NCBI GenBank assembly: GCA_963729625.1
Contig: CAVSOU010000008.1
Coordinates: 96,001 to 160,000, forward strand
DNA: 64,000 nt
Direction: 5' to 3'
Source of the DNA: an uncultured bacterium
GTDB lineage: Bacteria > Chloroflexota > UBA5177 > JANWHV01
The notes below the pieces were generated by a model. It was not told the DNA's origin, did not search any database, and worked only from the letters and a program-made list of their open reading frames with translations. Below, one piece after another: positions 20,670 through 45,229 of the stretch. Within the stretch, counting starts at the first letter, position 1. The number at the start of each line of letters is the position of its first letter. Position numbers and translations under genes: made by a program.

Positions 20670-20690
20670 CAGTGTGGAGAATCCCTGCGC

Positions 20691-23554: not shown

Positions 23555-24535
23555 ATGGTGAACTTGCCGCTATGTCCATTCATCCGCGAGGCGTCATACG
23601 CCGTTCGTTCCCCGTGGGTCATGCCGGACCGGCGCCTGTTGGACTACCTTCTCGTGGTCGTGGAACGCGGTCAATGCCGGTTCACGCTCGAGGACCGGCA
23701 GTACGATTTGGGGGCCGGGCAGATCTTCCTCGCCCAGCCTGGCGATCGCTTGACCTTGGAGGGTCTCACCGACACCGTTACTCCATATGTGCACTGTGAT
23801 GTGGTAGACCAGCCGGGCCGCGATGAACGGTTCTCGCCAGGGCCTGGCTTTCTTGACCTGACGCCGTACCAGCATCTCGTGCAGCCGCGCCTTGATGATC
23901 TCTTGAGAGTACGCCTGCCAGTGATCGTCGAGCCGGCCGACCCGCATGGCTTCCGCGATCAGCTCGTGAGGTGTATCGGGCTCTGGCAATCGGGCACTTT
24001 GCTCAATCGTGTTGAAGCCCACGCACTCCTGTCCATGCTCTTTGTACAGGTGTTGCGAGCCCATTTTGCCGACAAGTCGAGCCCAACGCAGCTGCCGTCG
24101 ATCTTGCAGCACCTGGATGGCTACTTGCGGCACCGCATGCACGAGCGCATTACCCTCAAGACGATGGCGGAACAGGTAGGCTTCTCAGTGCCGCACACGA
24201 TCCGGTTGTGCCGCCAGCACTGGCATCAGACGCCGCATGAACGGCTCTTGCAATTGCGCCTGCAACACTCGCTCTTGTTGTTGCAGAACGTCGACTTGCG
24301 CGTAGCCCAGGTGGCAGGCTACTGCGGCTTCGCCGACACGCGGCATTTCGTGCACGTGTTCAGGCAGCGTTTCGGCATGACCCCGACACAGGCCCGGCAT
24401 GCGGACCTCAAGGGCGCGCAAGAGGCGCGCACAGGTGTGGACGGCGATGAGCAGCAGGTCAGCCGTGCTTTCGCTGCCGTGGCACGCCGGTCTCGCGCGA
24501 CAGGCGGGGCGCCGGACGGCAATAACGGATCGTGA
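23555..24535 (+). CDS. AraC-family regulator, copy B (close paralog of copy A)
   Basis: Collinear with copy A, sharing LPLCPFIREASYA, ERFSPGPGFLDL, CIGLWQSGT and LLLQNVDL. Confidence 0.92.
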   Translation: MVNLPLCPFIREASYAVRSPWVMPDRRLLDYLLVVVERGQCRFTLEDRQYDLGAGQIFLAQPGDRLTLEGLTDTVTPYVHCDVVDQPGRDERFSPGPGFLDLTPYQHLVQPRLDDLLRVRLPVIVEPADPHGFRDQLVRCIGLWQSGTLLNRVEAHALLSMLFVQVLRAHFADKSSPTQLPSILQHLDGYLRHRMHERITLKTMAEQVGFSVPHTIRLCRQHWHQTPHERLLQLRLQHSLLLLQNVDLRVAQVAGYCGFADTRHFVHVFRQRFGMTPTQARHADLKGAQEARTGVDGDEQQVSRAFAAVARRSRATGGAPDGNNGS

Positions 24536-24590
24536 TGCGCGAAAACAAACGGCCAGATAGGTCCTAGTTAGGTCATCCGGGGAGTTTACG

Positions 24591-25937: not shown

Positions 25938-27043
25938 AGCAGCCTGATGGCATGCTTGGCCGGCTGCCCGTTCCTCGGCCGGACTTTTCGAACTTGCGGC
26001 AAGTACTTTTGAGGCAGGGCGAGCCCGCCCGCCTGCCCAACGTCGAGTTCTTCATGGACCACCCGATCAAGGAAGGGCTGCTCGGCGAGCGCGTGCCGCA
26101 CGTGGTGTGGGGAGATCCCGGCTATAGCCACGAAGCCCACGCGCGTTATCTCGACTTTGACATCCGCTTCTGGTACCTCGCCGGTTACGACTATGTCACG
26201 GTCGAGCTGCAGGTGCCCATGATGAGACAGTGGCTCACTGCCGGCGATACCGCCCTGCTGGCAAGCGCGGAGCGTCGATGGCAGAGCGAGAACTCCGGCG
26301 CCATACAATCCTGGTCCGATTTCGAGCGGTATCCATGGCCCAAGCCGGAAGACGTCGACTTCTTCAACCTGGAGTACGTGAGCCGGCACCTGCCCGAAGG
26401 CATGCAGATCATCTTCTGCACGCAAGGAGGGCCGATGGAGAATCTCGTGACGCTGATGGGCCTTACGCCGCTGGCACTGGCGGTCCACGACGCCCCCGAT
26501 CTCGTCGCGGCCATCGCCGAACGGTTATCTGAAGTGCGAGAGACGATCTATGCGGCGGCCGTCGACGTGCCGAACGTCGGGGCGTTCTGGATGGGTGACG
26601 ACCTGGGCTATAAGACCTCTACCGTATTGTCACCGCGCGACCTGCGGAAGTACGTCTTTCCGTACCAGAAGCGGATTGTGGACATTGCCCATGCGCATGA
26701 CAAGCCGTTCCTGCTGCACGCCTGCGGCAACCTGGCACGAATCATGGATGAGCTGATAGACGGCGTCGGCATCGATGCCAAGCACTCCTTCGAAGACGTG
26801 ATCATGCCGGTCGCCGAATTCAAGCAGCGTTGGGGTAGCCGCGTGGCCGTGCTGGGCGGGATCGATATGGATTTCCTTTGCCGGCACAGCGTGCAGGAGG
26901 TCCGTACCTATACGCGCAAGGTCATCGAAGCGTGCGCGCCCGGCGGCGGCTATGCGCTGGGAACCGGCAATACACCAGCCAACTATGTACCCCTTGAGAA
27001 CTATCTCGCCATGCTCGATGAAGGCGCGAGATACGCGCGGTGA
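25934..27043 (+). CDS. Uroporphyrinogen decarboxylase/MtaA-CmuA family protein
   Basis: GDDLGYK, LLHACGNL, VLGGIDMD, GGGYALGTGN (His/Cys metal motif); ATGA overlap with the upstream gene. Confidence 0.88.
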   Translation: MKQPDGMLGRLPVPRPDFSNLRQVLLRQGEPARLPNVEFFMDHPIKEGLLGERVPHVVWGDPGYSHEAHARYLDFDIRFWYLAGYDYVTVELQVPMMRQWLTAGDTALLASAERRWQSENSGAIQSWSDFERYPWPKPEDVDFFNLEYVSRHLPEGMQIIFCTQGGPMENLVTLMGLTPLALAVHDAPDLVAAIAERLSEVRETIYAAAVDVPNVGAFWMGDDLGYKTSTVLSPRDLRKYVFPYQKRIVDIAHAHDKPFLLHACGNLARIMDELIDGVGIDAKHSFEDVIMPVAEFKQRWGSRVAVLGGIDMDFLCRHSVQEVRTYTRKVIEACAPGGGYALGTGNTPANYVPLENYLAMLDEGARYAR

Positions 27044-27103
27044 GGCCACGCCGACCATGTCGCCCCACCGGACCTCCGGCAAGGGCGCTCTGAACGGGAG
27101 ATC

Positions 27104-28315
27104 TCAATCCCAGACAACGGGAAGGCTCTTGAGGTGGTGGACCCCTCGCACCGGCGCGTACTCCACCGAGTCCGCGGCGAGGCGCAGATACGAGAGCCTC
27201 GTTGCCAATGCCTTGAACACCTCCTGACCTTCGATACGTGCCAGGAAGTGACCGAGGCAGAAATGAACGCCACTGCCAAAGGAGAGATGCGGATTTGGAC
27301 TGCGCAGGATGTCGAATGAGTCGGGGCTGGTGAATACCGCGGGGTCACGGTTCGCAGCGGCCATCGCCCAGGTTATTCGTTGCCCTTCCTTGACCTGTCT
27401 TCCATGAAGCTCTATGTCGCGAGTGACGATGCGGTAGGACAGGGGAACGGGGGGATCAAACCGCAGGCATTCCTCAGTCGCGCCGGCAGCGAGCCTTTGG
27501 GGATCCTTCTTGAACCGCTCCCACTGGTCCGGATGGCGCAGGAACGCCAGGGTTCCGTTGCAGATCAAGTCGATGGTGGTGACAAATCCGGCGTCGATCA
27601 GCAGCTGGGCATTGGCCTGAACCTCGTCGCGCGAATAACGCCCCTTCTGTTCAGCCTCCGCGAGGATACCGAGCAGGTCCGGTTGAGACGAAATGCACCT
27701 CCTGTCGATCTCTCCTTCCAGATAGCGCGACGTCGCCGTGATGCCCTCCGCCGAGTGGCGCATGCGATCGGGCTCGAGGCTCATCAGCGATTGCAGTCGC
27801 TTGTCGGCGTGTTCGCGCACCAAGGGACGATCCTGCTCGGGAATGCCCAACATCTCCGAGATGATGAAGAAAGGCAGAGGCTTCGCCAGGTCCTTCATCA
27901 CATCCATGCACCCGGCCGGCTCCACGGCGTCGAGTAGCCGCGCCACCGCTTCGCGGACCTGCTGACGCCAGTGCCGCTCCAGATGTGTCGGGCTAAATGG
28001 TTTGCGAAGCACCGCGCGCATGCGATCGTGCAGGGGAGGATCGTTCTGGATGAGCTCATGCTTTCGAAACGCGTTGCACCAAGCGACCAGGGATCGATCT
28101 TCTTCAGCAATCGGGAGGTCCGGGCCATTGTCCCGAACGTAGATCTCCGAGGAGAACAGCTCCGGATGGCGAAGGATCCAGACAATGTCCGCGTGGCGTG
28201 TCACCAGCCAGGTCTGAAGTTCCGCGTTCCAATGAACGGGCTCCTCCTCCCTGAGGCGGTTCAGCAAAGGGAACGGATCGGCGATAACGTCCATGGCGAA
28301 CAGCGCCTCAGTCAC
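27104..28315 (-). CDS. Cytochrome P450
   Basis: [10 protein letters not shown]-helix [16 protein letters not shown] (ExxR), AANRDP, heme motif [10 protein letters not shown]. Confidence 0.95.
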
Positions 28316-28679
28316 GGCCACACGTCCTTCCCGCTCTTGAGATTGGCCGGCACGTTGCGCTCCAGCTGGCCGCAGCCTCTCCACCTCTCAGCGGTAGGGC
28401 GGGTGTGCCGGAGCTCTGTTCGCTTTTCGTGACCCGTCCACGCACAGGGACCCCTGCCGGCCAGGTGCACGACAGCCTTGCGGTCCGTGTGGCCAGCCGG
28501 CCATCGCATCGCTATAGCTGTGCATTGTGGCAGCACGGTGCGATGGCGTCAACCCGACGATCCTGTCAGTTCGGTGTCTAGCATTATCACGATCGATGGT
28601 CGCTCTCGCTGAGCGACTGTGCTTCCGAGCGAGGTGCCCGTGAGTGTCGATGCTAGCCGGAACGCAGCCGGCCCAGCAC

Positions 28680-29871: not shown

Positions 29872-32800
29872 TCAGATCGGCAGAAGCACGTTGAGTGTCT
29901 CCGCGTAGACCAGCCGCCTGCCCGTCGCCGGCAGTACGGCTATCGCCGCCTCGGATGCCACCGCACCAGGATATAGCTCGTATTCGCGCAGCACGAGGCG
30001 CAGGGGGGGCGGTGGTGTCGGCAGCGTGGGCAGCGAGTACTGGCCGGTCCAGACGGTCTCGTCCTTCACCGTCGTGCCGTGCAGCACCGTGACGCTATTT
30101 TGCACCGGAATCCAGCCCACATCCGGATCGGATGCCTCGGGGTTGCCGATCTGCTGCTCCATGCTGACCTCGATGATGTTGGTCGTCCGCAGAGGCGCTT
30201 GCCCTGCCACCGTGATGGTCATCCGCTGCGGTACTTTGCCATTGAAGATCACCGTCGCCACGCGATCGGGCGCGATCTGGGAAAAGTCGGCCAGCACCAG
30301 TCGCGAGAGATGCGCGTTCTGGATCGAGTTCGGCTGATAGCGAGCCAGCACCAGCCTGATGAACGGATTGTAGGCGAGCCCGCCGCTGATCAGGACGTCG
30401 GCATACCACAGCCTGCGATCCGGATCGTACGGTGACCTCGTGTCCGGCCACCGATACGGTGACGCCGGTCTGTTCGTCGATCGTAAGCAGGTTGCCGGTC
30501 CGCGTGGCGTTGGTGAAGCCGGACAAGGGGGGTGAGACGGGCGTTGGCGCGTTGAACGAGCGCCAGAGCGGATCGAGGCCCCATTGCGTGATATGCGACG
30601 GATCGGGCTGCGCGAAGGCCACGGCTGCGGGCGGATGCACGGCCGGCAGCACCACCCCCAGCAGCTCGCCCTCGCCGGACGAGTACCATGGGCGCTCCAG
30701 GTACACGCGCAGGCCACCGCCGCGCCGCACCGCGCCGATACCCGTCTTCAGCGCGCCGCTGGTGCGCGAGAAGATGGGCAGCACATAGAGCAGGTTTGGC
30801 GAATTGGGCCGGGCGGAGCTGGGCACGTCGATCACACCCCGCGGGAGCGGGTGCGTCACATTGACGACGCTCGCGGCGGCAGCATGCCCCGGCGTCGGCT
30901 TTGCCACGGCGCCCGTGTCGCTCGATCGCGTGATCAGATCCGGCTGGGCCGTGAGCTCGTCCTTGGTGAAGGGGAAGTACTCGCGATAGCGGCTCGTACC
31001 GATGGCGGTGTAGGACACGCGATGGTACTTCGTGTTGCTGAATTCGTGCGTGAACAACTTCCTGCGATCGCTCACGATTGCCGGATTGGCCGGCGCGAAA
31101 GGCACTGTCTTGTCGCCGTAGTTGATCGGTATCTCCGAGATGTGTCCCTGATGGCTCTGCACGGCCGGCGCCGGTTGCGTCACGTCGTCCACGGGCTCAT
31201 ACCAGCTGGCTGTCAAATCCATCTTGATCGTGCTGTTGCCGCTGATCGGCATGGGCATGTCGACCAGCACGGCCGAGGTGTCGCCTGTTTGGCGTGCCGC
31301 GAAGAACCGATTCGAAAAGCCCGGCTTGATCAGCGGGTGCTGCACCGCGTGCACCAAGGTGATCTGGTGGAAAGGCGTGAGCAGCCAGACGAGCCCTTCC
31401 TGGGCCGCTTTCAGCAAGGCGCCCCCCAGCCCGGCTTGCACAATCCAGTCCCATATCGCGAACAGAAGCAGTCGCGAGGGATCAGGCCGAGAGCTGTATT
31501 GCACCATCACGATCTCGCCCTTGGGCAGCTCGACCGTCAGCAACGGATGCGGGCTGGTCTCCCATTTCGGCGGGTGCGGCACTGCCCTGGCGTCGATTCC
31601 GTTCAGCAGCAATCTGAACGTGCCGTAATTGGGCCAGTTATGGGGCCAGGCACCCTGAACCCAGGTAGGGTCGGTGAAGGCCTTCCCCGGCGTCACGCCG
31701 GGCAGACCGAGGAACGTCGCCCCCACACCGATCGGGTCCGGCATGTACGGGAGCGGGAAGTAGTCTGTATTCAATGGACTCGGCGTGTAGGTCCCGCCGC
31801 TGTACACCTCCGGCGGTGGTGTGGACAGCTGGTTCGCGGGCGTGGAAGACACGACCGGCGTCGTCGGAGTAGGGTTCGGCTTGGTCTCTTGCGGAAGACT
31901 GACATCTGTGTCCGTGATCAGCTTGTACGCCGCCGAAGGCGACATGCCTTCAAACATGCCGTACGTCTCGGCCATCATCTCGCTGGTCTTGGGCGGCAAG
32001 AAATGCCGCTCGGCATTCTTGTTGTAGGTCGGCGACGACTGATCCGCGTAGTATTGATCGACACTGCGATCGAAATCGCTGCGAATCACCAGCCGGGCCA
32101 TTGACTCGCCGGGCGATCCGCTGATGGAATGGCGCAGGGCAATAGCCGGGGCGATTAACGGCTCCCAGCGAGCATAAAAGATAGGGCTCGTCCATGCCAT
32201 GGGATTCTGGGCGCCCGGCGCATCGACGGCAATGCGGTGCCCCGCGACGTCCACCATGCGCGCCCGAAGCTTGTAGAAATGGCCAAACCGGAGCTTGGGG
32301 AGGCTCTTGTTGGGAGCCGCGAAGCTGATGTTCAGTCCGTACTTCGTGAGACCCGAGTCCGTCAGCTCGGTCGGGTCCTCGGGCGTTTCGGCATTGCCGT
32401 CGACGCCGATGGGCTTGACCGGGCGGGGCGCGGCAAGACTCCAGCCCGACCAGCGGAACACCTGTTCGTGCAGGTACAGATCGCTGTTCGACACACCAGG
32501 CGTCTCCGAGCCCGCCATGGTCACGAAGCCTTCGCCGTCTGTTTTCACGTGGGTATTGACCCCTCCCACGTGCAGAACGCCGCGACTGTCCGTCGTCACC
32601 GGACTCTTGCCCGCGGGAGCGAACTTGAACTTGAAGGTGCCCTGCCTGCGGCTAATTGAGAGCCACTTGCCAGTCAGTTTGTCCCAGATGTCGACGGCAT
32701 ACCCGCGCACCAGGTCGTCCGCGTACATCTCGACCGGCGCATTGCTCTCCGCGCTCGCGTTCTGAGCGGTGGCGCGCTGAAAACGCAGTGCCAGGTCATA

Positions 32801-33937
32801 GGCCCGCCCTGTATGCACGAGCGAAATGCCCGCCGATCGTATCGAGGGCATGCTCGCGGTCATCGGCTGGCCGGCAATCGGCTGGGCCACATGCTGCGCG
32901 ACGGTTGCCGCCGTGCCAAGCAGCTTCACGGACGTGCCGGTGACGTCCATCTGCGTGACGTCGAAAGTTCCCTTCGCGTCAAGCCTGAGCAGGAGGTCGC
33001 CGGTGAGGTAGGAGCCCGGCTGCGGCTTCGCCCTGAACCCGCCGGTGGTGTCAAGCAGGTAATGCGTGAGGGGCAGCACGTTCGGCGGACCAAAGAGCTT
33101 GGAGGGTCTGATGGAAACGGTCGTCGCAGCCGCACCCACCGGGATGCCGGCGTCGAACGGGATCTTCAGCTCGACAACCAGTCCCATCGTTTCCAGTAGC
33201 TCCGGATAATGGCCTATGGCGGCGATCATCTTGTGGAAATCGAAGGAGTCAACCAGGTCGGAGAGCTTCGGCTTGGCAATCGGAGTGACCAAAGTCCCTT
33301 TTGCGGTCAGCAGCTTCCTGTGCAAGAATGCGTCGGCTTGATAGTAGTCTCCTGGGACGCCACCCGGCTGCTCATTCGGCCGAAAGGCCTTGATCTTGCG
33401 ATCGTGGAGCAGATTCGTGAGCTGCTGCGCGAGCGGGTTTACGGGCACATTGGCGACCCCGTACGCGCTTCGCTGTGCGACGGCGAGCGGCGCCAACACC
33501 TCGTGCATATCCCGGAGGTTTGGCAGCTGGCTCGGGTTCTTCGCGACGGCCTGAATGACCGACTTGTACCGCTGCTGAATATCATTCTTCAGCCTGGAGA
33601 CCGGGTACGACCGTACGGCCTGATTGGAACGGTCCTCGAAGGCGAAGGGGATGATGGGCGTCATCTCCGTGAACAGGGCATGCCAGAGATCCATGTCCGG
33701 CTTCGCGCTTACCACCTCTGCGGGTAGCGTGGGACCACCCGCGAACGCCACCTTGAACTGAATGCCGGCTACCGTCTCCGGCCACTTGAGCCAGTCGGTA
33801 AAGTCCCCCAGTGTCGGCGAGCCGTCCATCTTGAGACGGGGCGAGACGAAGACACTGACGAACAGCGCGCCGCCCGCCGCCAACGGCCCTTGTGGTCCGT
33901 GTGGAATCGCAGTCCAGGTCACAACCTGCTGTTTCAC
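29872..33937 (-). CDS. Large uncharacterised protein (~1350 aa), frameshift near 30431; second gene of the giant pair
   Basis: GTG at 33937 after AGGAGG. ORF 30095..33958 continues, after one extra base at AGHEVT/YDPDRRLWYAD, into the frame of ORF 29872..30717 (PFIRLVLARYQPNS...RLVYAE). No signal peptide seen. Confidence 0.82.
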
Positions 33938-33950
33938 GCGCGGCCTCCTT

Positions 33951-36900
33951 TCAGGCAAACGCCAAGAGGTAGTCTTCCCAGTTGGTCTCGGTCACCTGGT
34001 CCGCAAACGTTGGGTCGTTGTGCGATCCGGAGAACTGGCGCTGGACCGAGGCCGACACCGTAATGCTGAAGAAGACGATGTGGACCGAGATGGTAAGTGT
34101 TGCCTCACCCACCACTTTGGTGTCGGGACCATCCTTCTCATAGGTCAGATCCAGCTCGACGTCGATCGATGCGGAGATGATCCCGCCCAGCACCTCCACG
34201 TCGCCGTGAATATGCACGAAGCCGGTCAGGATCGTCTGGTCCTTCGGGCTCTTCTCCATCTTGAAGTAGATGCCCGCCATGATCGAGACGCTGCCGCTGG
34301 CGATGCCGAAGTCGAGCGAAAGCTCGGCCCCAAACTCGAACGAAGCCTCCAGCATGTCCAGACCGTCGAGACCCAGGCTGATACCGAAGAATCCACCGCC
34401 GCCGAGCATGGAGACCGTCAGGATGAAGGGATGTTCGCGCGTGCAGAAGTTGAAGTACACCTGCGCCGGGCTGCTGCCGATAAATGGGATGGTGACTTTG
34501 GCGCCCAGCGAGATGTTGTCCAGACTGAAGATGCCGACCCCCAGGCTGGGCAAGTCGAAGGTGAACCCTGCCTCAACGCCATCGGCCGTGATATCCACGA
34601 ACGGAGGGTCGGTGAAGCTATCCGCCGGAATGGCATCCTTGAGGTCGTTTACGAAGGAGAGCGGCCCCTCGAACTGCAGCACCACCCCTGGGTCGGGAAC
34701 CGTCACATCCGGCTTCTGACCACTCGACGCGCTGAACGTCAACCCGGCAAAGCCAACATAGATAATGTCGGCCAGGTCGATGCCGATCTTGCCCAGCGTG
34801 CCGACGATGCTGAAGGACGGGTCGCTGCTGCCGTCGAGCGGAATGTGTATGGTAGCCGTGACGGACAGGAATTTGTCCAATGCCTTGAAGGGAGCGAAAT
34901 CCTGCAGGTGCGGCGACCAGGTGAGCGTCGTGTCGATAGCCGTGGGCATCTGCCCATGCTTGAGCAACGGCAAGGGATTGATGCCCTGCAGGCTGCCCAG
35001 ATCGTCGACCAACTTCTTGAGATCGGTTGGGAACGAGGTGAATGGCGCCTGCAGTGCCGTGACGTCGCCCGAGAGAGCGCCCACATTCGCCGAGCCGAGG
35101 TCGGCCAGCAGCTTGTCCAGATCGGCGAGAATCGACGTCAGGTCCGTCACGAGCGTGCCCAGATCACCGATGATGGCGCCAACGCCGTCGCCGAGGAGAT
35201 CCGTGACGAAGCTCGGCAACGAGGTCAATGCGCTGTGCAGTGCATTCAACGGTGACTGCAGCGCGGCGAGCGCGGCCCGCAACGGCGCCAGATCGGATTG
35301 CAGGGTTCCCAGCGCCTGGGCCTGCAGCGCGGCCAGGTTGCCCTGCAGCTTGCTCACGGCATCCGAGATAAGCTGATTCAGCGTGTCGGGCGCGCTCTCC
35401 ACCGCCTGGACGAGAGATAGGATCTGGAAAAGCGGTTTCAGCGACGGCATCCTGATGATCGACGAAAGCGGCACGGCCCCCAGGATCTTCGCATCATTGT
35501 CGAAGAAATTCTTCAGGAAATCCCCGACACCGGCATCCGGAGTAGAGCTACCAGACGTATCGCCCACGTCACCGGCGGCCACGTGGTCGAAATTGCCGCC
35601 GACCGGCCCGGTCACGCGCGACAAGGCGGTGATCGCCAGGTTGGGCGTCACGGTGCCCGGCGTGCCGGTGCCGCCGGAATTGCTGCCGCCAAAGGCGATC
35701 TTCGCCGTGCTGGAATCCAGGATTTCCGCAAATACCTCGCCCACGTTCGCGGTGCCGCCAAGGTCGTTCTGCAAATAGTGGTCGCTCAGCTTGATCTTCG
35801 GCTTCTGGCCGCTGTGCAGCAGCGCCTCTACCGCCGGTATGCCAACCGTGGACGTGGCCACGATCGGGTAGAACCGCGGCTGGTCGGCGTTGATCAGCGC
35901 CGATTGCGATGGAGACGGCGGTACAAACGCGTCAAACGTGATATCGCTGGCGTGCAGCGTGGTGTCGCCGGGCTTTCTGCTCGGCGCAAACGCTACCTTC
36001 TGACCGTTGGTCGGCCGGGTGCGCCGGTCTGGATATCCGCTGGCGGTGGAGTTGTATTTCGTGCGCACCTGGTTCATATAGGTGGCGTCGAAAGCCAGGA
36101 AGTTCTCTACGCTGATGAACGCCAGGGGCGCGGTGAACTCGGCCCGCTGGCCGTCGCTGTCCTGGCCAATCAGGTGGAACTGGAAGTCCTTCCCGCCGAT
36201 TTGCGGCCAGAAGTCGTCCGTGTCGCGATACCCCTGGCTGGCGTCGAGCGTCAGGATGCCCTTTCCGTCCGGCGGGTCGAGGTCGGGGGTGGTCTTGGTC
36301 GTGATTTCCACCTGCTTGAAGGGCATGGCCCGGTCGATGCTGCCTTGATTCCCGTTCGAGAGCGGCATCGTGTACCCGGTGTTGCCGAACAGTTTGATCG
36401 GCTCGCGCACCACGATGAACATGCGCTGGAACAGGTAGGCCACGTTGCGACCGTTCTGGTAGTAGAACTTCCGCTCTGTCACCTTCACGAGAGATGCGGC
36501 ATGACCGAAGGGGAACAGGTATCCCTTATAGACCACACGCACGTAGTTATCGCGCCCTTGCGTCCCTCTGTGCCGCCACTCCACCAGTGGAATGCCCAGG
36601 TTGACGCCAAGTGGCCAGGCGCCGTGGACGTCTATCCAGGCGCCCAGGGTGGTCAGCATCAGCCGGTCGACCTGTGCCGGCAAGGGGTTGTAGTGCGACG
36701 GCGGGATGAAGGTAGCCAGCTCGGTTTCGATCCCCTTGGGCAGAATGGCGATCTTCGTGGGAAGCGGCAAGGGAATCAGGACTTTCTTTGGCGGCGGCAC
36801 TGCCTTGCTGAAGTCCGAAGTCAGGACCACTAGCTGCATGCGGTCCCGCCCGGACAACGACATGCGGAACGGCACATTATCCTGCAGCGCATTCGCATAG

Positions 36901-39041
36901 TTCAACTTCGGCAAATAGTCCGCCGACCACGAGGCTCGGATGGTCCGCCAGGGCTGCAGCAAATCGAACGGCTTCCCGCCAACGTAGGCGTCGATCGTCA
37001 CCCCGTACTTCCGGCCCGCGGCCGTGCCGATTGGTTCGTAGGCGTAGTGCGTGTCCACCAGGAAGGTCCGAACCGGCCGCTTTGCCGTCCCCGGCAAGGT
37101 AAACTTCACTCCCAGCCGCGTATGCCACAGCTCAGTCCAGCCATTATGGGTCACCGGCGTGAAGGCATGCACCCAGGCTGAGAAGGCGTTCGGCGAAATC
37201 TTGAGCCGCCAGGGCAGCTCCAACGAGGTCTCCGTCGGCAACGGCGCCGCGATTTTCGCCGTCGTGTAGCCCCCAGCCGGCAGCGCCGTCGGCGGCACAC
37301 TCGGCGTCAGCGTCGCCCAATCGAGCAGGGTCTGCAGTGTAAGCGGCATGCTTTTGAAGCCGGCTGGCATGGAAAACACCAGGCGGCTTTCATCCGCCAG
37401 CCGCGCGCCAACCGGCGTCACCGGTAGCCCAGCGGGAAACTCTGGGTTCGTGGTGCTCGTCTTGGTGGCATCGGAATCGACGACGTGGTCGGATCCGGGA
37501 TAGGCCGTCTTTGGCACCGCGATACCTGCCTGCTCCACCTGAAAGAAGGCTTGCTCGGCGATATTCTGGCCCTGGAAATGCACGGCGAGGTAGGGCTTCA
37601 GTTTGGCGCTGCGCGGCATTGCCTGCGGCGGCTTATTTGTGTGGGTCGTGTCGATCCTCATGTTTATGAATTCGAAGGTCAACGCCAGCAAGTCGTCCGG
37701 CCGCACTACCGAGATCTGCGGGTTGATCAGTGTGAATCGTTGGAACGAGCTCGACGGATGGTCGGACAGCACGATCTGTGCCGCGTGCTGCGAGCTAGGC
37801 CGCTCCAGGCCCGTCGCCACAAAAGCGAGATGCGTCGTTTCGCGCGGTGCCACTGGCGCCGCCACGGCGCCGGCGATCGGTATCGACACCTTCAGTACTG
37901 CCGGCGCGCAACGCACCGCCGTCACCATGGAGCCGCGCGCATGTATTTCAAAAGGCAGCGTCCCCGGCAGGCTTCCCACTTCTATCGCGCAGCTGCCAGC
38001 CTGGAGCCATGTCGGCTGATCGCCGAAGCGTGCGACCAACGATTGCTGGTTTCCGCCGGCATCGAAGGCGATCGCATAGCGCGCCCCGCTCAGAGGCAGC
38101 GCGACGCTGGTTCCGGTGGTGTTTCTGAAACCGGTGTGGGGCACGAACGTGATGGAGTCGCCCGCGTCTGCGACGAGCGCGGCAGTGCAATGGCGACTGC
38201 TGTCTTCGCCAAGCTCGAGCACGATCGAATCAAAAGCCTGTGAGGGAATCCTGAGCTGCCACCTTCCTGCCGGCTGCATGGCAGGTTCCAGCGCCCAAGC
38301 GCGATTACCGCGCTCAAGCCCGATAACTGTGCGCTTGAGCGCTCCACGCAGCACCACGGTCTCCCCAACGGCCGGCATCGCGATGCGCACCATGTCGGAG
38401 ACCAGCGGCGAGCCCAGCCCGTGCAACATCGCAATGCCGTTCGCTCGCGCGGTCGTCACCCACTCTGGTGTATATGCGGCCTGCGCGGATCCTGCGACCG
38501 TGAGCGCCGTATCTGGATCGAGCCGGAGAGGCGGGCCGGACAAGCTCACTCGAGAGCGGAGGCTATCCAGCCCGGCAAGCCAGGGCACGAAGAGACCGCC
38601 GGCGGAAAAGCCGCCAAGCGCCATCTTCAACTGAATACGCCAACCGCCGGCGCCGTGGCGAATCTCCGCGCGCAGATCGGCGGGCATGTCCGTGCCCGGA
38701 TAGATCGCGCGGCTCAGCTCGACCAGAATGCGATCCGAGCTTTGTTCCACACGGAGCGCCGGTGACCCGGCGAAACGACGCGTATCGATCACCCAGCGCT
38801 CTGCTCCGCGGTAGAGGAAGGCCACCCGGCCTTTCCCGCTTCGCACCATGTCGAAGGTACCGAGTACGCTGCCCTCAACCGCGCGCAGGGCCGGCGAAAT
38901 ACCTGCCGCGGCGACGCCGGCCAGGCCAAGCGCCTTGCGCCGAGTGACATTGAAGTCGCCACCTGTGGGCTCGGATGGATCGCCGGTTGGTTGGGTTCGA
39001 GACGCGCGCAGGGCGGCCAAATCAAGGTTTGCACGGTGCAT
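33951..39041 (-). CDS. Large uncharacterised protein (~1696 aa) with a Tat-like signal; first gene of the giant pair
   Basis: ATG at 39041 after GGAGG; TRRKALGLAGVAAAG twin-arginine-like segment; uninterrupted 5.1-kb frame; beta-rich C-terminus and a helical insert. Confidence 0.88.
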   Translation of the reverse strand: MHRANLDLAALRASRTQPTGDPSEPTGGDFNVTRRKALGLAGVAAAGISPALRAVEGSVLGTFDMVRSGKGRVAFLYRGAERWVIDTRRFAGSPALRVEQSSDRILVELSRAIYPGTDMPADLRAEIRHGAGGWRIQLKMALGGFSAGGLFVPWLAGLDSLRSRVSLSGPPLRLDPDTALTVAGSAQAAYTPEWVTTARANGIAMLHGLGSPLVSDMVRIAMPAVGETVVLRGALKRTVIGLERGNRAWALEPAMQPAGRWQLRIPSQAFDSIVLELGEDSSRHCTAALVADAGDSITFVPHTGFRNTTGTSVALPLSGARYAIAFDAGGNQQSLVARFGDQPTWLQAGSCAIEVGSLPGTLPFEIHARGSMVTAVRCAPAVLKVSIPIAGAVAAPVAPRETTHLAFVATGLERPSSQHAAQIVLSDHPSSSFQRFTLINPQISVVRPDDLLALTFEFINMRIDTTHTNKPPQAMPRSAKLKPYLAVHFQGQNIAEQAFFQVEQAGIAVPKTAYPGSDHVVDSDATKTSTTNPEFPAGLPVTPVGARLADESRLVFSMPAGFKSMPLTLQTLLDWATLTPSVPPTALPAGGYTTAKIAAPLPTETSLELPWRLKISPNAFSAWVHAFTPVTHNGWTELWHTRLGVKFTLPGTAKRPVRTFLVDTHYAYEPIGTAAGRKYGVTIDAYVGGKPFDLLQPWRTIRASWSADYLPKLNYANALQDNVPFRMSLSGRDRMQLVVLTSDFSKAVPPPKKVLIPLPLPTKIAILPKGIETELATFIPPSHYNPLPAQVDRLMLTTLGAWIDVHGAWPLGVNLGIPLVEWRHRGTQGRDNYVRVVYKGYLFPFGHAASLVKVTERKFYYQNGRNVAYLFQRMFIVVREPIKLFGNTGYTMPLSNGNQGSIDRAMPFKQVEITTKTTPDLDPPDGKGILTLDASQGYRDTDDFWPQIGGKDFQFHLIGQDSDGQRAEFTAPLAFISVENFLAFDATYMNQVRTKYNSTASGYPDRRTRPTNGQKVAFAPSRKPGDTTLHASDITFDAFVPPSPSQSALINADQPRFYPIVATSTVGIPAVEALLHSGQKPKIKLSDHYLQNDLGGTANVGEVFAEILDSSTAKIAFGGSNSGGTGTPGTVTPNLAITALSRVTGPVGGNFDHVAAGDVGDTSGSSTPDAGVGDFLKNFFDNDAKILGAVPLSSIIRMPSLKPLFQILSLVQAVESAPDTLNQLISDAVSKLQGNLAALQAQALGTLQSDLAPLRAALAALQSPLNALHSALTSLPSFVTDLLGDGVGAIIGDLGTLVTDLTSILADLDKLLADLGSANVGALSGDVTALQAPFTSFPTDLKKLVDDLGSLQGINPLPLLKHGQMPTAIDTTLTWSPHLQDFAPFKALDKFLSVTATIHIPLDGSSDPSFSIVGTLGKIGIDLADIIYVGFAGLTFSASSGQKPDVTVPDPGVVLQFEGPLSFVNDLKDAIPADSFTDPPFVDITADGVEAGFTFDLPSLGVGIFSLDNISLGAKVTIPFIGSSPAQVYFNFCTREHPFILTVSMLGGGGFFGISLGLDGLDMLEASFEFGAELSLDFGIASGSVSIMAGIYFKMEKSPKDQTILTGFVHIHGDVEVLGGIISASIDVELDLTYEKDGPDTKVVGEATLTISVHIVFFSITVSASVQRQFSGSHNDPTFADQVTETNWEDYLLAFA

Positions 39042-39460
39042 TCCACGCCTCCAGACACTCTGACGGCTACCGGCCATGCGCCGGCACCATGCGACCACGG
39101 CACGACCAACCCACGTGCCCAGGGATTCACGCGGGTTCTGCGGTACTACGGCATCGGCCCGTGCCAGCCTCAGAATACTCTGAAGTGGGCGGGCTGTATA
39201 GCCTTCAATTGAGTGTAAAACTGCCCTTTATGGAACGCCCGTGCATATTAGCGGATCGATTGCTAGTGGGTAGGGCAACAAGAATCCGTCCGTCACATTT
39301 GGTACACCGTGCGCAGCCAGCATCGGCGCGTCCTACTGGACCGCGGCTTCATTGCCCACCAGCCAGACCTCGCCGGGGCACGTGCCGTGATTGTTCCCCG
39401 AGCCGCGGCGCCACGATGCCGAGGCACTTGGAACTCGGCATCGTGACGTCCGCACCCACG

Positions 39461-42400
39461 CTAACTCACCGCCGGCTCGGTGGGAATCCAGGGACGCACC
39501 TTGACCCAGGCGGCGGTCAGCACGTCGGGGATGGCCACCGTGCTCGTGCTATTGGACACCGTCAGCACCACGCTAAGCGCGTTGGTGTTGCGTTCGCTCG
39601 GGTCCGTGTTGGTGGTGGAGTAGGAGTCCAGCCAGTAGTAGGGCTGGCCCGTCGAGGACCGGGCGATCTGGAACGTGTGCCGGTTACTGTCGCCCGCTCC
39701 TTCCGTCGTTCCCTGGCAGCAGTTCGTGGTGGAGTCGGACATGAAGTTGCCGGCATTGTTGAACCAGTGGTCGATGTACTGGCCCCAACTGAAGCGGTCG
39801 TAGATGCCGTTCCAGTAGGCGGAGGTGCCCAGGGTGTCGGCGGCGTAGGCGGTGGTGAGGTAGCCGGCGCCGAACGTGGTCCTGGAGCTGATGCCGTAGT
39901 TCTGGTTGCTGTCTCCCGCTGCCTCGGTGATGGTCAGCCCGTTGGCGACGGTGACGGCGGCGCTGCCGTTGGTGTAGTTCCACTTGGAGGTGTCCAGACT
40001 GGAGCCGGCGAAGGTGTCCTGCAGGGGGTAGAGGTCGGCCAGGTTGCGCAGGATCCTAGGGTTGCTGTTGCCCCAGGCCAGGGTATAGGCGGCGTCCGTG
40101 GCGGGGGAGGCTGCCAGATTGCGCTGCAGCTTGAACCAGAGGGTGATGTTGTTGGTGGACCAGGCGCCGTAGGTGGTGGTGTCGTAGTCCAGGTCGATCT
40201 GGGCGCCGCCGTACCACAGGGTGACGTCGGCGAAGGCCACCCCGCCGTCGGTGTTCGTGGCGTTATAGGTGGCCCCGTTGTAGACGGCGGCGGCCTGCGA
40301 GCCCGTCAGATGCACCTGCACCACGTAGTCGGTGGAGTTGGTGGGGACGGGCGCCGTGGTGCTGCCGGATACGGCGCTGCCGCCTCCGGTGATGGTGAGG
40401 GCCATGGAACCGGAGTAGGCGGACAGCCCCGGCGGTGTCTGGGTCGCGGTCGGGCTGGCGGTGGCCGTGCTGGTCGGCGTGGGCGGCGGCGGCTGGATCA
40501 CGCCGCTGAGCGGCAGGGTGTGGTAGGCGCCGGCGGAGACCATCCGCGCGGTGACGCCGGAGGGCAGGCCTACGGCTTCCGGGGTCGCACGGGTCGTGGT
40601 GGTGCTATCGCCGAGCTGGCCGTAGCCGTTCCAGCCCCAGGCATACATCTGGCCGTTGTTGCCGATCGCCAGGCTGTGGGCCGCCCCGGTGGAGGCGGCG
40701 AGCACGGCCACGGTGACCCCGCCGGGCAGGCCGACGGCTTCGGGCGTGAGGCGAGTGGTGGTCGTGCCGTCGCCGAGCTGGCTGTAGGTGTTCCAGCCCC
40801 AGACATACACCTTGCCGTCGCCGCCCACCGCCAGGCTGTGGCAGTAGCCGGCCGCCACGGTGAGCGGGATGGCCCCACCGGGCAGGCCGACGGCTTCCGG
40901 GGTGAGATGAGTCGTGGTGGTGCCGTCACCCAGTTGGCCGTCGACATTGTAGCCCCAGGCGTAGAGACTGCCGTCGCTGCCCACGGCCAGGCTATGCGCG
41001 TAGCCGGCGGAGACGGACAGCGCGGCGATGCCGAGACTGAGGCGCACAGCCTCCGGTGTGAGATGATTCGTGGTGGTGCCATCACCAAGCTGGCCGTACG
41101 CGTTCCAGCCCCAGGCATAGACGTTGCCGTCGCTGCCCACGGCCAGGCTGTGGCCGTCCCCGGCGGAGACGGAGAGCGCGCTCACGCCGGCCGGCAGCGC
41201 GAGCACCTCCGGGGTCAGCCGCGTGGTCGTGGTGCCGTCGCCGAGCTGGCCGGAGGCGTTGCCGCCCCAGGCATAGACACGGCCGTCGTTGCCCACGGCC
41301 AGGCTGTGCTCGTAGCCGGCGGACACGGACACGGCCGTGACGCCGCCGGGCAGGCTGATCGCCTCGGCGCTGAGCCGATTGGTGGTCGTGCCATCGCCCA
41401 ACTGCCCGTACGCGTTCCAGCCCCAGGCGTAGATCTTGCCGTCGCTGCCCACGGCCAGGCTATGGTACCAGCCGGCCGAGACGGTGACGGCGGCGACGTT
41501 GCCGGGCAGCACGACGGAGAGAGGAGCGAGCTGCCCGTAGGTCGTGCCGTTGCCCAACTGGCCGTAGGCGTTGAGCCCCATGGCGAACACCGTGCCGGGG
41601 GCCGGCGGCAGCACGGTGATGGACACGGTGCTGCCGAAGCACTGGCCGCCGGCGGTGGGGCACTCCGAGAGGTTGATCCAGTTCGCGCCCGGCGTGGCGG
41701 CCAGCGGGACGGTGCAGGAGGCGTTCAGGGTGCCGGACAGGTTGGCCCACTCGCACTGATTGGCGCCGCCGCCGGCGGACAGGAACATGCCGGTGGCGCC
41801 CCAGATGGCGAGGTCGGTCTGAAGCTGCCCGTAGTAGGGCCAGCAGAGGGCAATGGTATCGCCGGGATAGTAGGCGCCTCCCAGGGGCGGGCACTGTCCG
41901 GGCACCGGCGTCGGCGGCGCGGGTGCGTTGACGACCACGGCCATGGTCTGGGACGCGAGCGGGGTCTGGGCCGGGTTGTATTCGCTGACGGTAATCGTGT
42001 GGGTGCCGGGGGTGGCGTAGGCGGCCGAGGGGATGGTGCAGGTGGTAGAGTACGCGCCGAGGGAGCTCCAGTCGCACTCGTTGTTCAGATAGGGATTGGA
42101 AGCGGGCAGCAGGTTGTTCGCGACCCCGTCGGGCCCGTCCCAGTGGGCCAGGTCGAGCTGGGCCGATCCTCCGCTTTCGTCCGGCCAGGTGATGCCCACG
42201 GGGTCGCCGGGACTATATGTTGCCGGCGGGTCCCAGACGCTGATCCCGTGCCCATCGCACGTGCCGTTGGCCGGATTGATGAGCAACGGGAAGTCCGCAT
42301 CGAGATGCTGACTTGGATTCGAGATGGCTAGAAGGTTGCTGTTCTGCGTAGTGCAAAACGTCATTCCTGCCACAACCGTCTTGTAACTTGCATTTGAATC

Positions 42401-45229
42401 GTAGAGACCCAACGCCTTGCCTGGAAAGTCTAGGCCGGTGAACCACATGACGCGTACAGGCGTCTGGCCAAGCGCATAGGCGTACCCGTTGCGGTCTCCA
42501 AGCCAGTCGGTAAGGTCCGTCAGGTAGGCAGCCTCGTACTCGGCGTAATCGTCCGGGGGGCTTGGCACCGCGCTGTAGTTGTCCTCGGTGAAGACGAGCG
42601 GGATGCCGGGATTCGTGGCCGTCCACTCGCTGATCATCCAGTCGAGCCTGCTCGTGGACGGGAGCGACGTATTGAAATCGTCAGTTGGGATCGTTGGGGG
42701 GTTGTACCAACGTGGTTGAAAGCCGTAGTTTGGCCAGTACGTAGGGTATTCAGGAGTCGCGTAGCCGTATGGATGAACTGCCACTGCCAGGTTGCTATAG
42801 GGCACGCCGCTGTTCGTGGCATCGGTGATCGCGGTCCATATCTGCCACTCATTACCGTTAACCGCGAAGGTAGCGTCGGGAGCGATCAGGCCAGCGGTCA
42901 TGATGTGCACGTTCGACCCGAGCCCCGGACCCCATTGGCGGGGTCGTAGGCGGTCTTGATCTTCTTCGCATTCGCAGTGGCGGCGAATTCCTGCTCATAC
43001 GAGTTCGCGCTGCCCCCGTAGTAGTTCCAGTTGGCATTCGGCTCGTTGCCGATCTCGTAGTAGATAGGCCTGCCGGTCGGGTACCAGCTATTTTTGATCA
43101 GCGCGCTCACGAAATTGGCCACACCCTGCTCGAATTGGCCCGTAGTGGGCGCGCATCCACCCGCGACGAAGTCGACGATCGGCACCGCCGTAGTAGACAT
43201 CTGCTGAAGGATGGAGGAGGCTGGGTAGTCGTTGAGGACGGTACCACTCGCGTCGACGCTTTCCGCGTTCGGAACGCCCATGTAGTTGGCGCACGTGATC
43301 TCGTCCTCAAAGCGCAGATACTGAGCATTCAGGGGGGACAGCGCGTTTCCGACCGCAAGAACCCGCACTGGGGGGGCCGTCGGGTTCGGGGTCGCCGTGC
43401 CCGGGCCGGGCGTGTAGAGGCATCCTACGCCGGCACACGGGCCGAACGCGCCCGAAACGCCGTAGATGCTGCTCGTGCAGTCGTTCAGCGTGGAGTAGAT
43501 GCAGCTCGCGGCGTCGCTCAGCCCGGATCCGGCGGTGCTCGCGGCGCCGTTCACCGACGGCGCGCTGGGAGCGAGCAACACGTCGAGGTAGGGAGCTTCC
43601 GTGAGCGCCGTCAGTCCCGTGTCGAGAGCGGCAGAGAATCGCGTCGCGGACTGCGCGCCGACCAGGCTCAGCCCCCCGTTGGTGCGGTGGTCGGCAAGCC
43701 ACTGCCTCGCGACCGCGCTCACATCCCATGCGTGCCAGCCGTCGCCGCTCGGTGCCGTCTCGGGCGCCGCCGCGGCCGCGGCCGCTTGTGATGAGCCCCG
43801 CCAGCTCGGCAGCTGGTACGCGTACGTCCCCAGGGCTGCCAGCCCTCCCGGCGACGCGTTGCTCATCACGGAAGCGCCAGTTGCCGTGGCCGTGCCGGCG
43901 GACCACAGGTGCAGTCCCGCGGAGACGACGGGCACCCCCGGCTCCAGGGCCGAGAGATCGAACTTCAGATAGCCGCGGCCGTTGCAGGTGCCGGACGGAC
44001 CGGCGGCGAGATCGCGCACGGGCATGGCGCCGTCCTGGTCGCAGTCCGCCACCGTGCCCGTGGTGGCGGCGTAGTGCGCGTCGAAGGCGGAGACGATGGG
44101 CACGTCCACGCGGATCGGAAAGGCGCGGCGCGCGTCTGTGAGCCAGGTCGGGTCGAGGTGCAGCGTGAGCCGTTGCGCGCTGCCGACCACGGCCAGGTCC
44201 GTGGTGAGGCTGCCACCCGTGACCGCACCCGTGGCACTGTCCGCGGCCGTGGCGCGCTCGAGGTAGTACTCGGGCGCCTGCTGGACGATGGGGCTGCCGT
44301 TGTCCGCATACTGCGTCACGGGTCTTGCGATCTGATAGCTGCTTGTCCCATTGGCGGTGACGCTGGACTGTGGGTCCAGCGCCAGGTTCACGGCAAGGTT
44401 GGAGAGAGAGCCGGGCCCCGTGAGCGTGAAGGATACGGCCAGGCCCTCCACCGTGGCCCGCAGCACTGCCGTCACGCCCGTGGTGCCGGCGGTCGGGACG
44501 AGGGTCAGGGCGTTGCCCTGCACACCCACGCCGGGGCCCGGCGAAACGAAGCCCGGAATGCTCAGGCCGAGCGTGCCGCCGTCCTCGTTGACCAGGGAGG
44601 CAACCTGTCCGGCGCCGGCCGGGCCGCCCAGGCGGGCGGTGAACGGCACGGAGGCCGGCGAGAGCGTGCCGTCGCCGTTCGGCACCAGGTCCACATTGCG
44701 GAGATGCCAGCCCGTGCTATCGAACTGCCCGACAGGCCCGGCGTACAGATAGAGATGCGTCTGACCGTTCCCGGCGGAGACGAAGCGACTGTTGGGGGTG
44801 TCGATCTGCCAGAGCTCGGTTCCCGCCGGTGGATACGTGGGATTCGGTAGCGACGGTGGTGGCCGTCGCGGGTCCCGGTGTGGTTGCCGTGGGCGTTGCC
44901 GTGACCGTGCCGGTTGCAGCCGTGGGGGTGAAGGTGTTGGCTGCAGGGGTTGGCGTGACCGTGTCGGTTGCGGCCGTGGGCGTGAAGGTGTTGGCTGCCG
45001 GAGTCGGCGTGAGCGTACCGCTTGCAGGCACTGCCGTGACCGTGCTGCTCGAAGGCGCCAAGGTGGCAGTCCCGGCCGCCAACCCCGCGGCCGCGGCAGT
45101 CGCGGAGTTAGCGGGGGATGGCGTCGCGGCGGGCGCCAGAATGCCGGAAAGGATGAGCGAGAAGGGCACCAGGCGGAGGCACGCTTGCCTCCACGGGCGA
45201 TTGGCAAGCAGGTTGACCATACGGCGCAC
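39461..45229 (-). CDS. Giant secreted mosaic protein (~1920 aa): signal, PT linker, WapA/Rhs-like N-module, DNRLRE, GH-A-like barrel, Ig-like repeats, RCC1 propeller, DUF2341-like tail; frameshifts near 44858 and 42935
   Basis: Three overlapping minus-strand ORFs (44717..45229, 42898..45297, 39461..42910) join into one coherent frame. Motifs: GYLKFDLS and WDVSAVARQW...NGGL (DNRLRE); YEIGNEPN, AVHPY and FTEDN (GH-A); WGWNAYGQLG/AG..HSLAV (RCC1). Confidence 0.78.
40505..41592 (-). repeat. Seven RCC1 repeats (~156 bp / 52 aa unit), coding
   Basis: Seven copies of VYAWGWNxYGQLGDGTTT...SAGxxHSLAVGxDG, consistent with one 7-blade propeller. Confidence 0.9.
44895..45020 (-). repeat. 54-bp tandem repeat encoding a Thr/Pro linker
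   Basis: TPTPAANTFTPTAAT(D/G)TV occurs twice in the linker after the signal peptide. Confidence 0.8.

Follow-up and report, generated by a model that had tools for sequence, protein, structure and literature searches.

Gene organization of the locus

The sequence analyzed here, called the window throughout, is a stretch of 64,000 nucleotides from an uncultured bacterium of the Chloroflexota (contig CAVSOU010000008.1, positions 96,001 to 160,000), and the subject of this report is a pair of very large adjacent genes on its minus strand, gene 1 and gene 2. Gene 1 (33951..39041) encodes a protein of 1696 amino acids (180.8 kDa) that is identical to protein-collection entry P0001. The longest open reading frame (ORF) for this gene extends from 39098 to 33951 and would encode 1715 amino acids. 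We placed the start at the ATG at 39041, as the public protein collection also does; a GGAGG resembling a Shine-Dalgarno sequence (39048..39052), located 6 nt 5' of this ATG, backs the choice. Gene 1 ends with a TGA stop codon at 33953-33951 and is followed by an intergenic gap of 13 nt (33938..33950) that contains the sequence AGGAGG at 33949-33944. Gene 2 (29872..33937) starts with the GTG at 33937, and its N-terminus from that codon agrees with the family consensus. Its product, of approximately 1351 amino acids and 147 kDa, has no signal peptide and is predicted to consist of fibronectin type III (FnIII)-like sandwiches with helical inserts.

Gene 2 is present in two frames. The two ORFs, 33958-30095 and 30717-29872, overlap and contribute pieces of 1165 and 186 residues, for a total of 1351 residues and about 146.6 kDa. 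The shift lies at a CC on the minus strand (GG on the plus strand) at 30431..30432. Because an alignment of 65 homologues is unbroken across CC 30432/30431, with a continuous consensus, the copy in the window was taken to be frameshifted by one base relative to the family. One soil-metagenome contig of 174 nt (run X3; depth of 2.3; 2 mismatches) has one base missing at 30431, and the contigs of the best-matching sequencing run end at 30429, short of the frameshift. The frameshift may be either an assembly error or a real mutation.

The protein encoded by gene 1 contains 4 cysteines and that encoded by gene 2 contains none. Neither protein of the window has a segment resembling a transmembrane helix, and gene 2 has neither a signal-like N-terminus nor a hydrophobic segment. 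No Rfam family was found between 27000 and 43000, and a scan for promoters and terminators gave results at chance level (3 versus 2.0 and 8 versus 6.9).

Similarity to described protein families

Searches of curated libraries provided no family for either protein. Pfam, searched at E ≤ 1, returned no match for gene 2 and only a weak match of the coiled-coil type for gene 1 (Baculo_PEP_C, with 21 bits where the cut-off is 38), no NCBIfam model scored above its cut-off for either protein, and the PHROGs library gave only a weak coiled-coil match. There was no ATPase, nuclease, or other enzyme domain in the Pfam and NCBIfam scans of the pair. Six proteins from both families were compared to the PADLOC models at E ≤ 0.1, and 0 families were matched. 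Single-sequence searches of the PDB sequences with both proteins yielded nothing usable, and profile searches of the same sequences (A1 and A2) reached best E values of only 0.15 and 0.092. The ESM Atlas returned unnamed clusters only, with no usable match for the gene 1 core among the named clusters. The two proteins are also unrelated to each other as determined by hhalign (probability of 0.5).

Homologues of both genes are almost all annotated as "hypothetical," although one source names a Chloroflexi pair (P0008 and P0122) "putative outer membrane channel." No paper on either protein was found in the literature searched, which lay largely outside subscription journals. Since the pair could not be linked to any family, overall fold, or publication, we rate it as far from every described system; it comprises two undescribed protein families, and the export logic it apparently uses is a known one.

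Conservation and distribution of the gene pair

Both families are large. A word-indexed search with residues 600-1100 of gene 1 identified at least 1358 proteins at E ≤ 1e-3 among 8000 candidates scored, and a search with residues 400-900 of gene 2 identified 282 proteins among 8000 candidates. When the 1107-residue core of gene 1 was used for an exhaustive phmmer search of 1.84 billion cluster representatives, 4187 matched at E ≤ 1e-3, a number that fell to 3274 at E ≤ 1e-10 and to 2042 at E ≤ 1e-30. A search for short proteins possessing the C-terminal domain of gene 1 returned mostly fragments on short contigs.

We examined 78 gene 1 loci from a collection with one genome per species. A gene 2 homologue was located directly downstream of gene 1 on the same strand in 72 of them. 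These loci were from Chloroflexota, Chitinophagaceae (many) and other Bacteroidota, Chlorobiota/Kapaibacteria/Ignavibacteria, Balneolales, Armatimonadota, Actinomycetota, Betaproteobacteria, Acidobacteriota, Holophagaceae, Symbiobacteriaceae, WS1, Dormibacteraceae, Myxococcales, and one cyanobacterium. Four of the 6 loci without a downstream gene 2 have less than 300 nt of DNA after gene 1, and the genomes of the remaining 2 each possess two gene 2 homologues at other places. A gene for an M3 peptidase takes the place of gene 2 after a gene 1 copy in one metagenome-assembled genome (MAG) of Armatimonadota (L039:15806-17521) and one of Chlorobiota (L041:15377-17092), both of which carry gene 2 homologues elsewhere.

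Plasmids carry the same arrangement. Gene 2 was matched in 16 plasmid records (Bacillus, 7; Rhizobium, 3; Streptomyces, 3; Cupriavidus, 2; Diaphorobacter, 1), and in every one of them it lies beside the C-terminus of gene 1. On pBEMB20-1 of Bacillus tropicus, both genes are annotated as "hypothetical protein." The gene 2 family had no match in 50,697 phage records. The genome from which the window derives (5.4 Mb in 21 contigs, 87% complete) contains three paralogous pairs that are alike in their tight gap, in its site of the AGGAG type, and in the layout of the signal. Of the 201 genomes of the phylum that were sampled, 10 had a match, the window's own included, and matches fell in 5 of 122 genera; each of the 4 further genomes of the window's genus had one. 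The distribution within the phylum is patchy and accessory. No conserved third gene was identified when all flanking ORFs were clustered and 37 neighbors were compared to Pfam, and only lineage-specific housekeeping genes were seen.

An earlier note on this DNA, made from the sequence alone, had described the coordinates, the lengths, the 13-nt gap with its ribosome-binding site, and the frameshift, and all of these were borne out by our ORF reading and alignment. The note had recognized no catalytic or repeat domain, and no curated domain matched in either protein. A full-length match to a characterized family, which the note had named as a finding that would speak against it, did not turn up in the libraries searched. 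The blocks that had looked conserved in the single sequence coincide with columns that are invariant or at least 90% conserved among 69 gene 1 and 65 gene 2 sequences; conserved positions are E48 L49 W50 H51; R241 D242 ... H258 E267 R268; W503 G505 W506; R557 Y562 R565; and R1084-G1101. The note had also proposed checking whether homologues occur as an adjacent pair across phyla, and the loci and plasmid records above agree that they do. We conclude with high confidence that the pair is a genuine module of two genes, both conserved and mobile, whose products represent two undescribed families.

N-terminal signals and linkage to tatA

The N-terminus of gene 1 in the window resembles a long signal for the Tat (twin-arginine translocation) route (residues 1-55; 38877..39041). 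It consists of 33 residues containing L-D-L-x-x-L-R, followed by T-R-R-K-A-L-G with the twin arginines (RR), a weakly hydrophobic stretch, and A-L-R-A. Both paralogous gene 1 copies in the genome carry an RR-type signal as well. Several of the counts across the family were obtained with simple patterns and inspection by eye. Of 120 gene 1 homologues, 92 had an RR motif within their first 110 residues. Of the 28 without the motif, about 20 appeared by eye to be truncated or mis-started inside a domain, and 6 to 8 were complete-looking and signal-less. The far N-terminal motif, L-D/N-L-x-x-L-R, occurred in 46 of the 120, mostly in the long forms of about 1690 amino acids; the short forms of the Chitinophagaceae have K-R-R-K-L-L-K-F-L-G instead. 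A looser pattern applied to 61 complete ORFs from the loci detected 44 Tat-like N-termini, 3 of which looked by eye like chance matches. Eight of the 17 ORFs that the looser pattern missed do carry K-R-R-K-L-L-K-F-L-G, and were missed because the region searched cut the Chitinophagaceae motif off. In gene 2 homologues starting with M, a Tat-like motif or hydrophobic N-terminus was found in 0 of 111. These sequence patterns give good support to the view that most members of the gene 1 family are targeted to Tat.

A very distant pair on plasmid pC of Sinorhizobium meliloti LMB1, encoding proteins of 3052 and 1766 amino acids, was related by hhalign to the gene 1 core (E of 4.7e-68, probability of 100) and to gene 2 (E of 1.9e-37). 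The gene 1 product of this pair has a textbook T-R-R-D-F-L-G signal, and an annotated tatA gene is present directly after gene 2. The pair and its tatA (L088/L089, 30000-52132) lie between a type IV coupling-protein gene and traA of the conjugative plasmid. A second case was found in a Dormibacteraceae MAG (L075), in which a gene for a 61-amino-acid TatA (PF02416, 46.6 bits against a cut-off of 21) begins 30 nt after gene 2. There is no tat gene beside the pair in the window; TatC (PF00902, 186 bits) is encoded in the same genome on another contig (C14). A pattern scan of the 78 loci for small TatA-like ORFs gave no match, but it missed the Dormibacteraceae case too and is not a valid negative.

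In Cupriavidus metallidurans CH34, a gene for NrsF, an anti-sigma-F factor (L083:4897-5535; PF06532, 245 bits), is located directly upstream of a signal-less gene 1 on the same strand. That the NrsF gene adjoins gene 1 hints at control of this pair by an extracytoplasmic function (ECF) sigma-F factor. NrsF was not seen beside gene 1 in the other betaproteobacterial loci scanned.

Predicted structures of the two proteins

Following its signal region, gene 1 of the window has an N-terminal domain (about residues 56-440; 37722..38876) that is characteristic of the long forms and missing from the short ones, whose alignment begins only at query residue ~442 or ~597. The beta-rich core (about residues 441-1150; 35592..37721) is conserved, with invariant columns and a predicted local distance difference test score (pLDDT) mostly above 85 in the AlphaFold2 model. 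The most conserved block of the family falls at residues ~820-880, with the peak of the identity profile at residues 801-850. A predicted four-helix bundle (residues 1199-1356; 34974..35447) is the least conserved part by the identity profile, with 14-40% identity to distant homologues. The C-terminal beta domain (about residues 1368-1669; 34035..34940) is modeled as a meander of approximately 12 long strands that has a GGGG motif and is strongly apolar on one face, and a second peak of conservation falls in this sheet at residues ~1501-1600. The chain ends in a conserved helical tail, not in a beta strand with a terminal aromatic residue. The model of residues 590-1696, made from a 69-row alignment, had a mean pLDDT of 78.4 and a predicted template modeling score (pTM) of 0.63; in model numbering, the beta-rich part spans 1-560, the four-helix bundle 610-767, and the C-terminal region of meander strands 779-1080.

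Two of the 29 gene 1 homologues scanned have a CBM_4_9 domain, of the carbohydrate-binding module (CBM) type, in the slot of the helix bundle (P0061, residues 779-903; P0101, residues 551-675). Because CBM_4_9 replaces the bundle in these homologues, their sequences suggest that the slot is a variable ligand-binding position, which fits a location outside the cytoplasm.

All 12 of the C-terminal strands alternate strictly across the 69 sequences. The mean Kyte-Doolittle values of the two strand faces were 2.51 and -1.16, compared to 0.46 and -0.82 for control strands from the core. The sheet was closer to the walls of large barrels (SusC-like protein, LptD, and FhaC; root-mean-square deviation [rmsd] of 3.4-4.6) than to 12- to 14-strand barrels (rmsd of 7-9). 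Because the large-barrel walls are the better fit, we read the modeled sheet as open and gently curved with one apolar face. On this reading, something has to cover the apolar face, whether a membrane, further copies of the sheet, or gene 2.

Gene 2 was modeled over residues 1-1173 from a 65-row alignment, with a pLDDT of 84.1 and a pTM of 0.78. Against the BFVD viral library, it gave weak matches to phage tail proteins bearing FnIII domains (best E of 5.8e-5; template modeling [TM] score of 0.09-0.10). Immunoglobulin (Ig) domains of the ASH/DUF1573 type are present at the end of 2 of 28 long gene 2 homologues and of the Dormibacteraceae homologue (L075), and as judged from sequence they are a sign of location outside the cytoplasm. 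Fold searches identified no known overall fold, although the gene 1 core and the first 440 residues were not searched as separate domains; the matches for the pair were to generic parts only, namely FnIII-like sandwiches, a four-helix bundle, and a 12-strand sheet resembling a barrel wall.

One domain pair was tried in complex prediction, the C-terminal domain of gene 1 with residues 1-660 of gene 2. The interface score (ipSAE) was 0.59 (0.65, 0.56, and 0.59 in the runs), whereas the best of 3 controls scored 0.00, and the verdict of the tool was "weak support." Among solved complexes, 116 of 157 attain the mark used by the tool, as do 2 of 215 mismatched pairs; scores at the mark but no higher than 0.60 include only 18 of the 157 solved complexes, yet both of the passing mismatches. 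At least 21% of the contacts agreed between runs, and the pLDDT of the partner was at least 76. The models thus lend weak support to a contact between the C-terminal domain of gene 1 and the N-terminal half of gene 2.

Comparison with known systems

The closest parallel in export logic is the Tat hitchhiker. In HybO-HybC and DmsA-DmsB of Escherichia coli, one subunit has the signal, its signal-less partner is encoded adjacent to it, and the two are thought to be co-exported. The pair in the window is arranged likewise, with one RR-bearing subunit and an adjoining signal-less partner. The available portions of two papers describe PaoABC (PMC4273604) and FdnG-FdnH (PMC13186574) as complexes of this type. 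However, the hitchhikers are cofactor-bearing redox enzymes of up to about 142 kDa, as far as the available portion of the second source goes (PMC13186574), whereas the pair in the window is about 320 kDa, had no cofactor motif or enzyme domain that we could find, and has no sequence or fold relation to them.

In Bacillus subtilis, the genes for TatAd and TatCd are placed beside that of their substrate, PhoD. The tatA genes beside the presumed cargo genes on S. meliloti pC and in the Dormibacteraceae MAG resemble this placement. In contrast to the B. subtilis case, it is tatA only, without tatC, in 2 lineages, and neither is beside the pair in the window.

Type Va autotransporters and other outer membrane barrels (BrkA, AIDA-I, EspP, FhaC, LptD, and CymA) differ from the C-terminal sheet of gene 1 by a high rmsd of 4-9, and gene 1 differs from them further in having no barrel family in Pfam, no C-terminal beta-signal, a Tat-type signal, and monoderm hosts. 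Pfam scans of 29 gene 1 homologues found no barrel family in 27, and the other two carry only CBM_4_9. The lipid transfer proteins lipovitellin (1lsh) and MTP (6i7s) provided the top three Foldseek rows for the gene 1 core model (E of 2.9e-5 to 4.7e-4), with alignments spanning about 1056-1107 columns, the same beta-alpha-beta order, and large open amphipathic sheets. However, the TM scores were 0.07-0.09, the probabilities were 0.21-0.51, and there was no Pfam match. This lead consists only of Foldseek rows with a TM score of 0.07 and is absent from the best 50 rows of both structural re-alignments with VIA.

Gene 2, a long chain of beta-sandwiches with helical inserts, resembles bacterial alpha-2-macroglobulin (Salmonella, 4u48) and TEP1r. 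Bacterial alpha-2-macroglobulin is often encoded in a two-gene operon. The Foldseek row of this type for gene 2 had an E of 2.4e-3, a probability of 0.13, and a TM score of 0.07-0.08. Unlike those proteins, gene 2 has no A2M or MG domain in Pfam, its VIA row for TEP1r had an rmsd of 37, and it cannot form a thioester because it has no cysteine.

Interpretation and alternative explanations

We propose that the pair is a self-contained, horizontally mobile operon that would encode a two-protein complex which, in the majority of family members, would be exported via Tat. Gene 1 would supply the twin-arginine signal, the beta-rich core, the variable slot, and the C-terminal sheet of about 12 strands with its apolar face. 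Gene 2, translated right after gene 1, would bind it, probably on the C-terminal sheet, and would leave the cytoplasm as a signal-less hitchhiker on gene 1. Once outside, the apolar sheet would be covered by gene 2 or would lie on or in a lipid membrane, and the variable slot would then meet its ligand. Tat export, co-export of gene 2, the site of contact, and activity at a membrane are plausible but unproven steps. For the reading as a whole, a Tat-routed two-protein complex outside the cytoplasm with its amphipathic C-terminal sheet on a membrane or on gene 2, we judge the chances to be about even. A bolder version is doubtful and is put forward tentatively. It holds that the pair could represent a natural class of Tat cargo that surpasses any known in size by a factor of two to four, free of cofactors and with a giant signal-less partner, perhaps crossing domain by domain; some hosts would provide a local tatA, and the apolar-sheet module, of a kind not seen before, would act on a membrane. 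For comparison, the pair in the window amounts to about 320 kDa and that on the S. meliloti plasmid to about 4800 residues. The largest Tat cargo named in the available portion of a 2026 review is FdnGH, at 142 kDa and about 6.4 nm, and according to the same portion linked domains need not cross Tat in one stroke (PMC13186574).

Several observations weigh against export of the pair by Tat. Mature gene 1 alone, at about 175 kDa, exceeds the 142 kDa of FdnGH, the figure in the available part of that review (PMC13186574), and export of the whole complex would be unprecedented, since about 320 kDa exceeds the range of named Tat cargo. The signal of the window's gene 1 scored 11 bits with TIGR01409 (E of 0.44), under the cut-off of 16.7; TIGR01409 is a short model, and the n-region in the window is unusually long, with 33 residues before the RR. 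Signals are not universal in the family, with about 49 of the 61 complete ORFs from the loci having one and about 12 having none. Gene 1 of C. metallidurans CH34 lacks an RR motif, its start being only about 60 residues ahead of the first core domain; gene 1 of B. tropicus likewise begins shortly ahead of that domain, neither protein of the B. tropicus pair has a signal, and several loci of Anaerolineae and Betaproteobacteria are likewise signal-less. Adjacent tatA genes were found in only 2 lineages, and a tblastn search of the 78 loci with one TatA gave one further case. The complex score falls in the weak band, with a pLDDT for chain 1 in the complex of only 40-53. Finally, the frameshift in gene 2 may mean that the copy in the window is inactive.

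Taken together, these data leave the export claims of the earlier note partly intact. Its absence of a signal on gene 2 was confirmed in the window copy and throughout the homologues. Its Tat signal on gene 1 stands in that T-R-R-K-A-L-G is present and RR is family-wide, but not by the TIGR01409 score. As for its co-exported heteromeric complex, the pairing looks obligate, the families are undescribed, the Tat-type signal is on gene 1 only, tatA is adjacent in two lineages, and the contact is weakly supported (0.59); the signal-less clades, however, speak against a universal Tat route. Co-export and the end functions put forward in the note (a lipid conduit, a pore-forming or toxin complex, or a surface scaffold) are conjectural.

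The same export step could serve a different purpose. The pair could be a binary pore-former or toxin, that is, a two-component agent secreted or released from the surface to attack the membranes of grazers or competitors, with the apolar sheet oligomerizing, the slot binding the target, and gene 2 keeping gene 1 soluble. The patchy accessory distribution, the several paralogous pairs per genome, the presence of the pair on megaplasmids in strains of the Bacillus cereus group, Rhizobium, Streptomyces, and Cupriavidus, the variable or CBM-bearing slot, and an amphipathic 12-strand sheet with curvature nearer that of large-barrel walls are all consistent with such an agent. However, the searches made revealed no sequence or fold likeness to known toxin or pore-former families, there is no conserved immunity-like third gene, and the sheet is already formed in the AlphaFold2 monomer. 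We consider this explanation unlikely.

Gene 2 could also stay inside the cell, as a dedicated cytoplasmic assembly or proofreading partner that holds the apolar sheet until Tat takes gene 1 alone. The uniform lack of a signal among gene 2 homologues would be expected of such a partner, as would the weak in-silico contact with the C-terminal domain of gene 1 (0.59, versus 0.00 for the best control), and the difficulty of a 320-kDa cargo far above the known Tat range would be avoided. Known Tat proofreading chaperones, however, are small proteins, whereas gene 2 encodes a protein of about 147 kDa made up of FnIII-like sandwiches. The ASH/DUF1573-type Ig domains on a few gene 2 homologues do not fit a cytoplasmic partner, nor does retention of the pair even where gene 1 is signal-less. 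A role of this kind is quite unlikely in our estimation.

Alternatively, the RR motif may be unused, and the pair may work within the cell or on the inner side of the membrane, for instance in conflict or defense as a module borne on plasmids. Signal-less clades do exist, and genes for an HNH endonuclease, a helicase, and an HD-domain protein are near the pair on the Bacillus plasmid, with dpdE near the related gene on an Agrobacterium vitis plasmid. However, the six family members compared to PADLOC had 0 matches, gene 2 was without a match among the phage records, and the Pfam and NCBIfam scans found no ATPase, nuclease, or other enzyme domain. The RR motif and the uncharged stretch are, moreover, conserved across phyla, including the most distant branch, and tatA is adjacent in two lineages. 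An intracellular function is very improbable.

An outer membrane device, in which gene 1 would be an autotransporter-like protein or channel with a true C-terminal beta-barrel and gene 2 its passenger or partner, is suggested by the domain order (signal, large beta-rich region, helical linker, and sheet of about 12 strands, as in type Va autotransporters) and by the "putative outer membrane channel" label on P0008 and P0122. It is nevertheless the most remote of the explanations considered, because monoderms also have the pair (Bacillus, Streptomyces, and Actinomycetota MAGs, with a conserved C-terminal domain about 40% identical to a Rhizobium copy) and because the sequence families that define such devices are missing from it (Pfam gave no autotransporter, POTRA, ShlB, or TPS match). 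Gene 1 also has a helical tail in place of an aromatic-terminated strand and a signal of the Tat rather than the Sec type.

Neighboring genes

Upstream of gene 1 on the minus strand (39461-49193), the window encodes an RCC1-repeat protein (39461-42994), an 806-amino-acid protein without a family (42898-45318), and a BNR/Asp-box protein (45759-49193). The G+C content of this block is 0.70-0.72, compared to 0.60-0.65 in the preceding 40 kb. We rejected the RCC1, 806-amino-acid, and BNR genes, together with a neighbor of 173 amino acids, as parts of the module; they are absent beside both paralogous pairs and in 77 of the 78 loci. The exception is one locus (L014) with RCC1 and BNR matches beside the pair. 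On the other side, at 16581-28387, is an ABC uptake cluster of the sugar/peptide type, comprising a solute-binding protein, two permeases, an S15 X-Pro dipeptidyl-peptidase, and two AraC-type regulators; next to it are a URO-D-like gene and then a cytochrome P450.

Two other loci had unusual neighbors. In a Symbiobacteriaceae MAG, a lone ORF for a T4 gp19 tail tube (L045:18088-19065; PF06841, 56.7 bits) follows gene 2; SDR and MreB genes come next, and there is no contractile-system cluster. A plasmid of A. vitis CG957 (L087, 54242-70940) encodes a 3039-amino-acid protein with a related C-terminal domain (27.8% identity), followed by hypothetical genes (1262, 592, and 111 amino acids) and then dpdE.

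Significance of the gene families

If gene 1, with or without gene 2, does travel through Tat, the accepted size range of the pathway would be broken, as far as the available portion of the review defines it (142 kDa for FdnGH, PMC13186574). The pair would then offer a natural model cargo, free of cofactors, with which to ask how folded proteins of several domains pass through a membrane that stays sealed. Tat aside, these are two large families of thousands of clusters in bacteria of soil, sediment, sludge, and rhizosphere from many phyla, and they constitute a sizeable annotation blind spot, since no curated domain, recognizable overall fold, or paper was found in the searches made. The pair is also carried by megaplasmids in cultured strains of Bacillus, Rhizobium, Sinorhizobium, Streptomyces, and Cupriavidus, and tractable hosts for its study exist.

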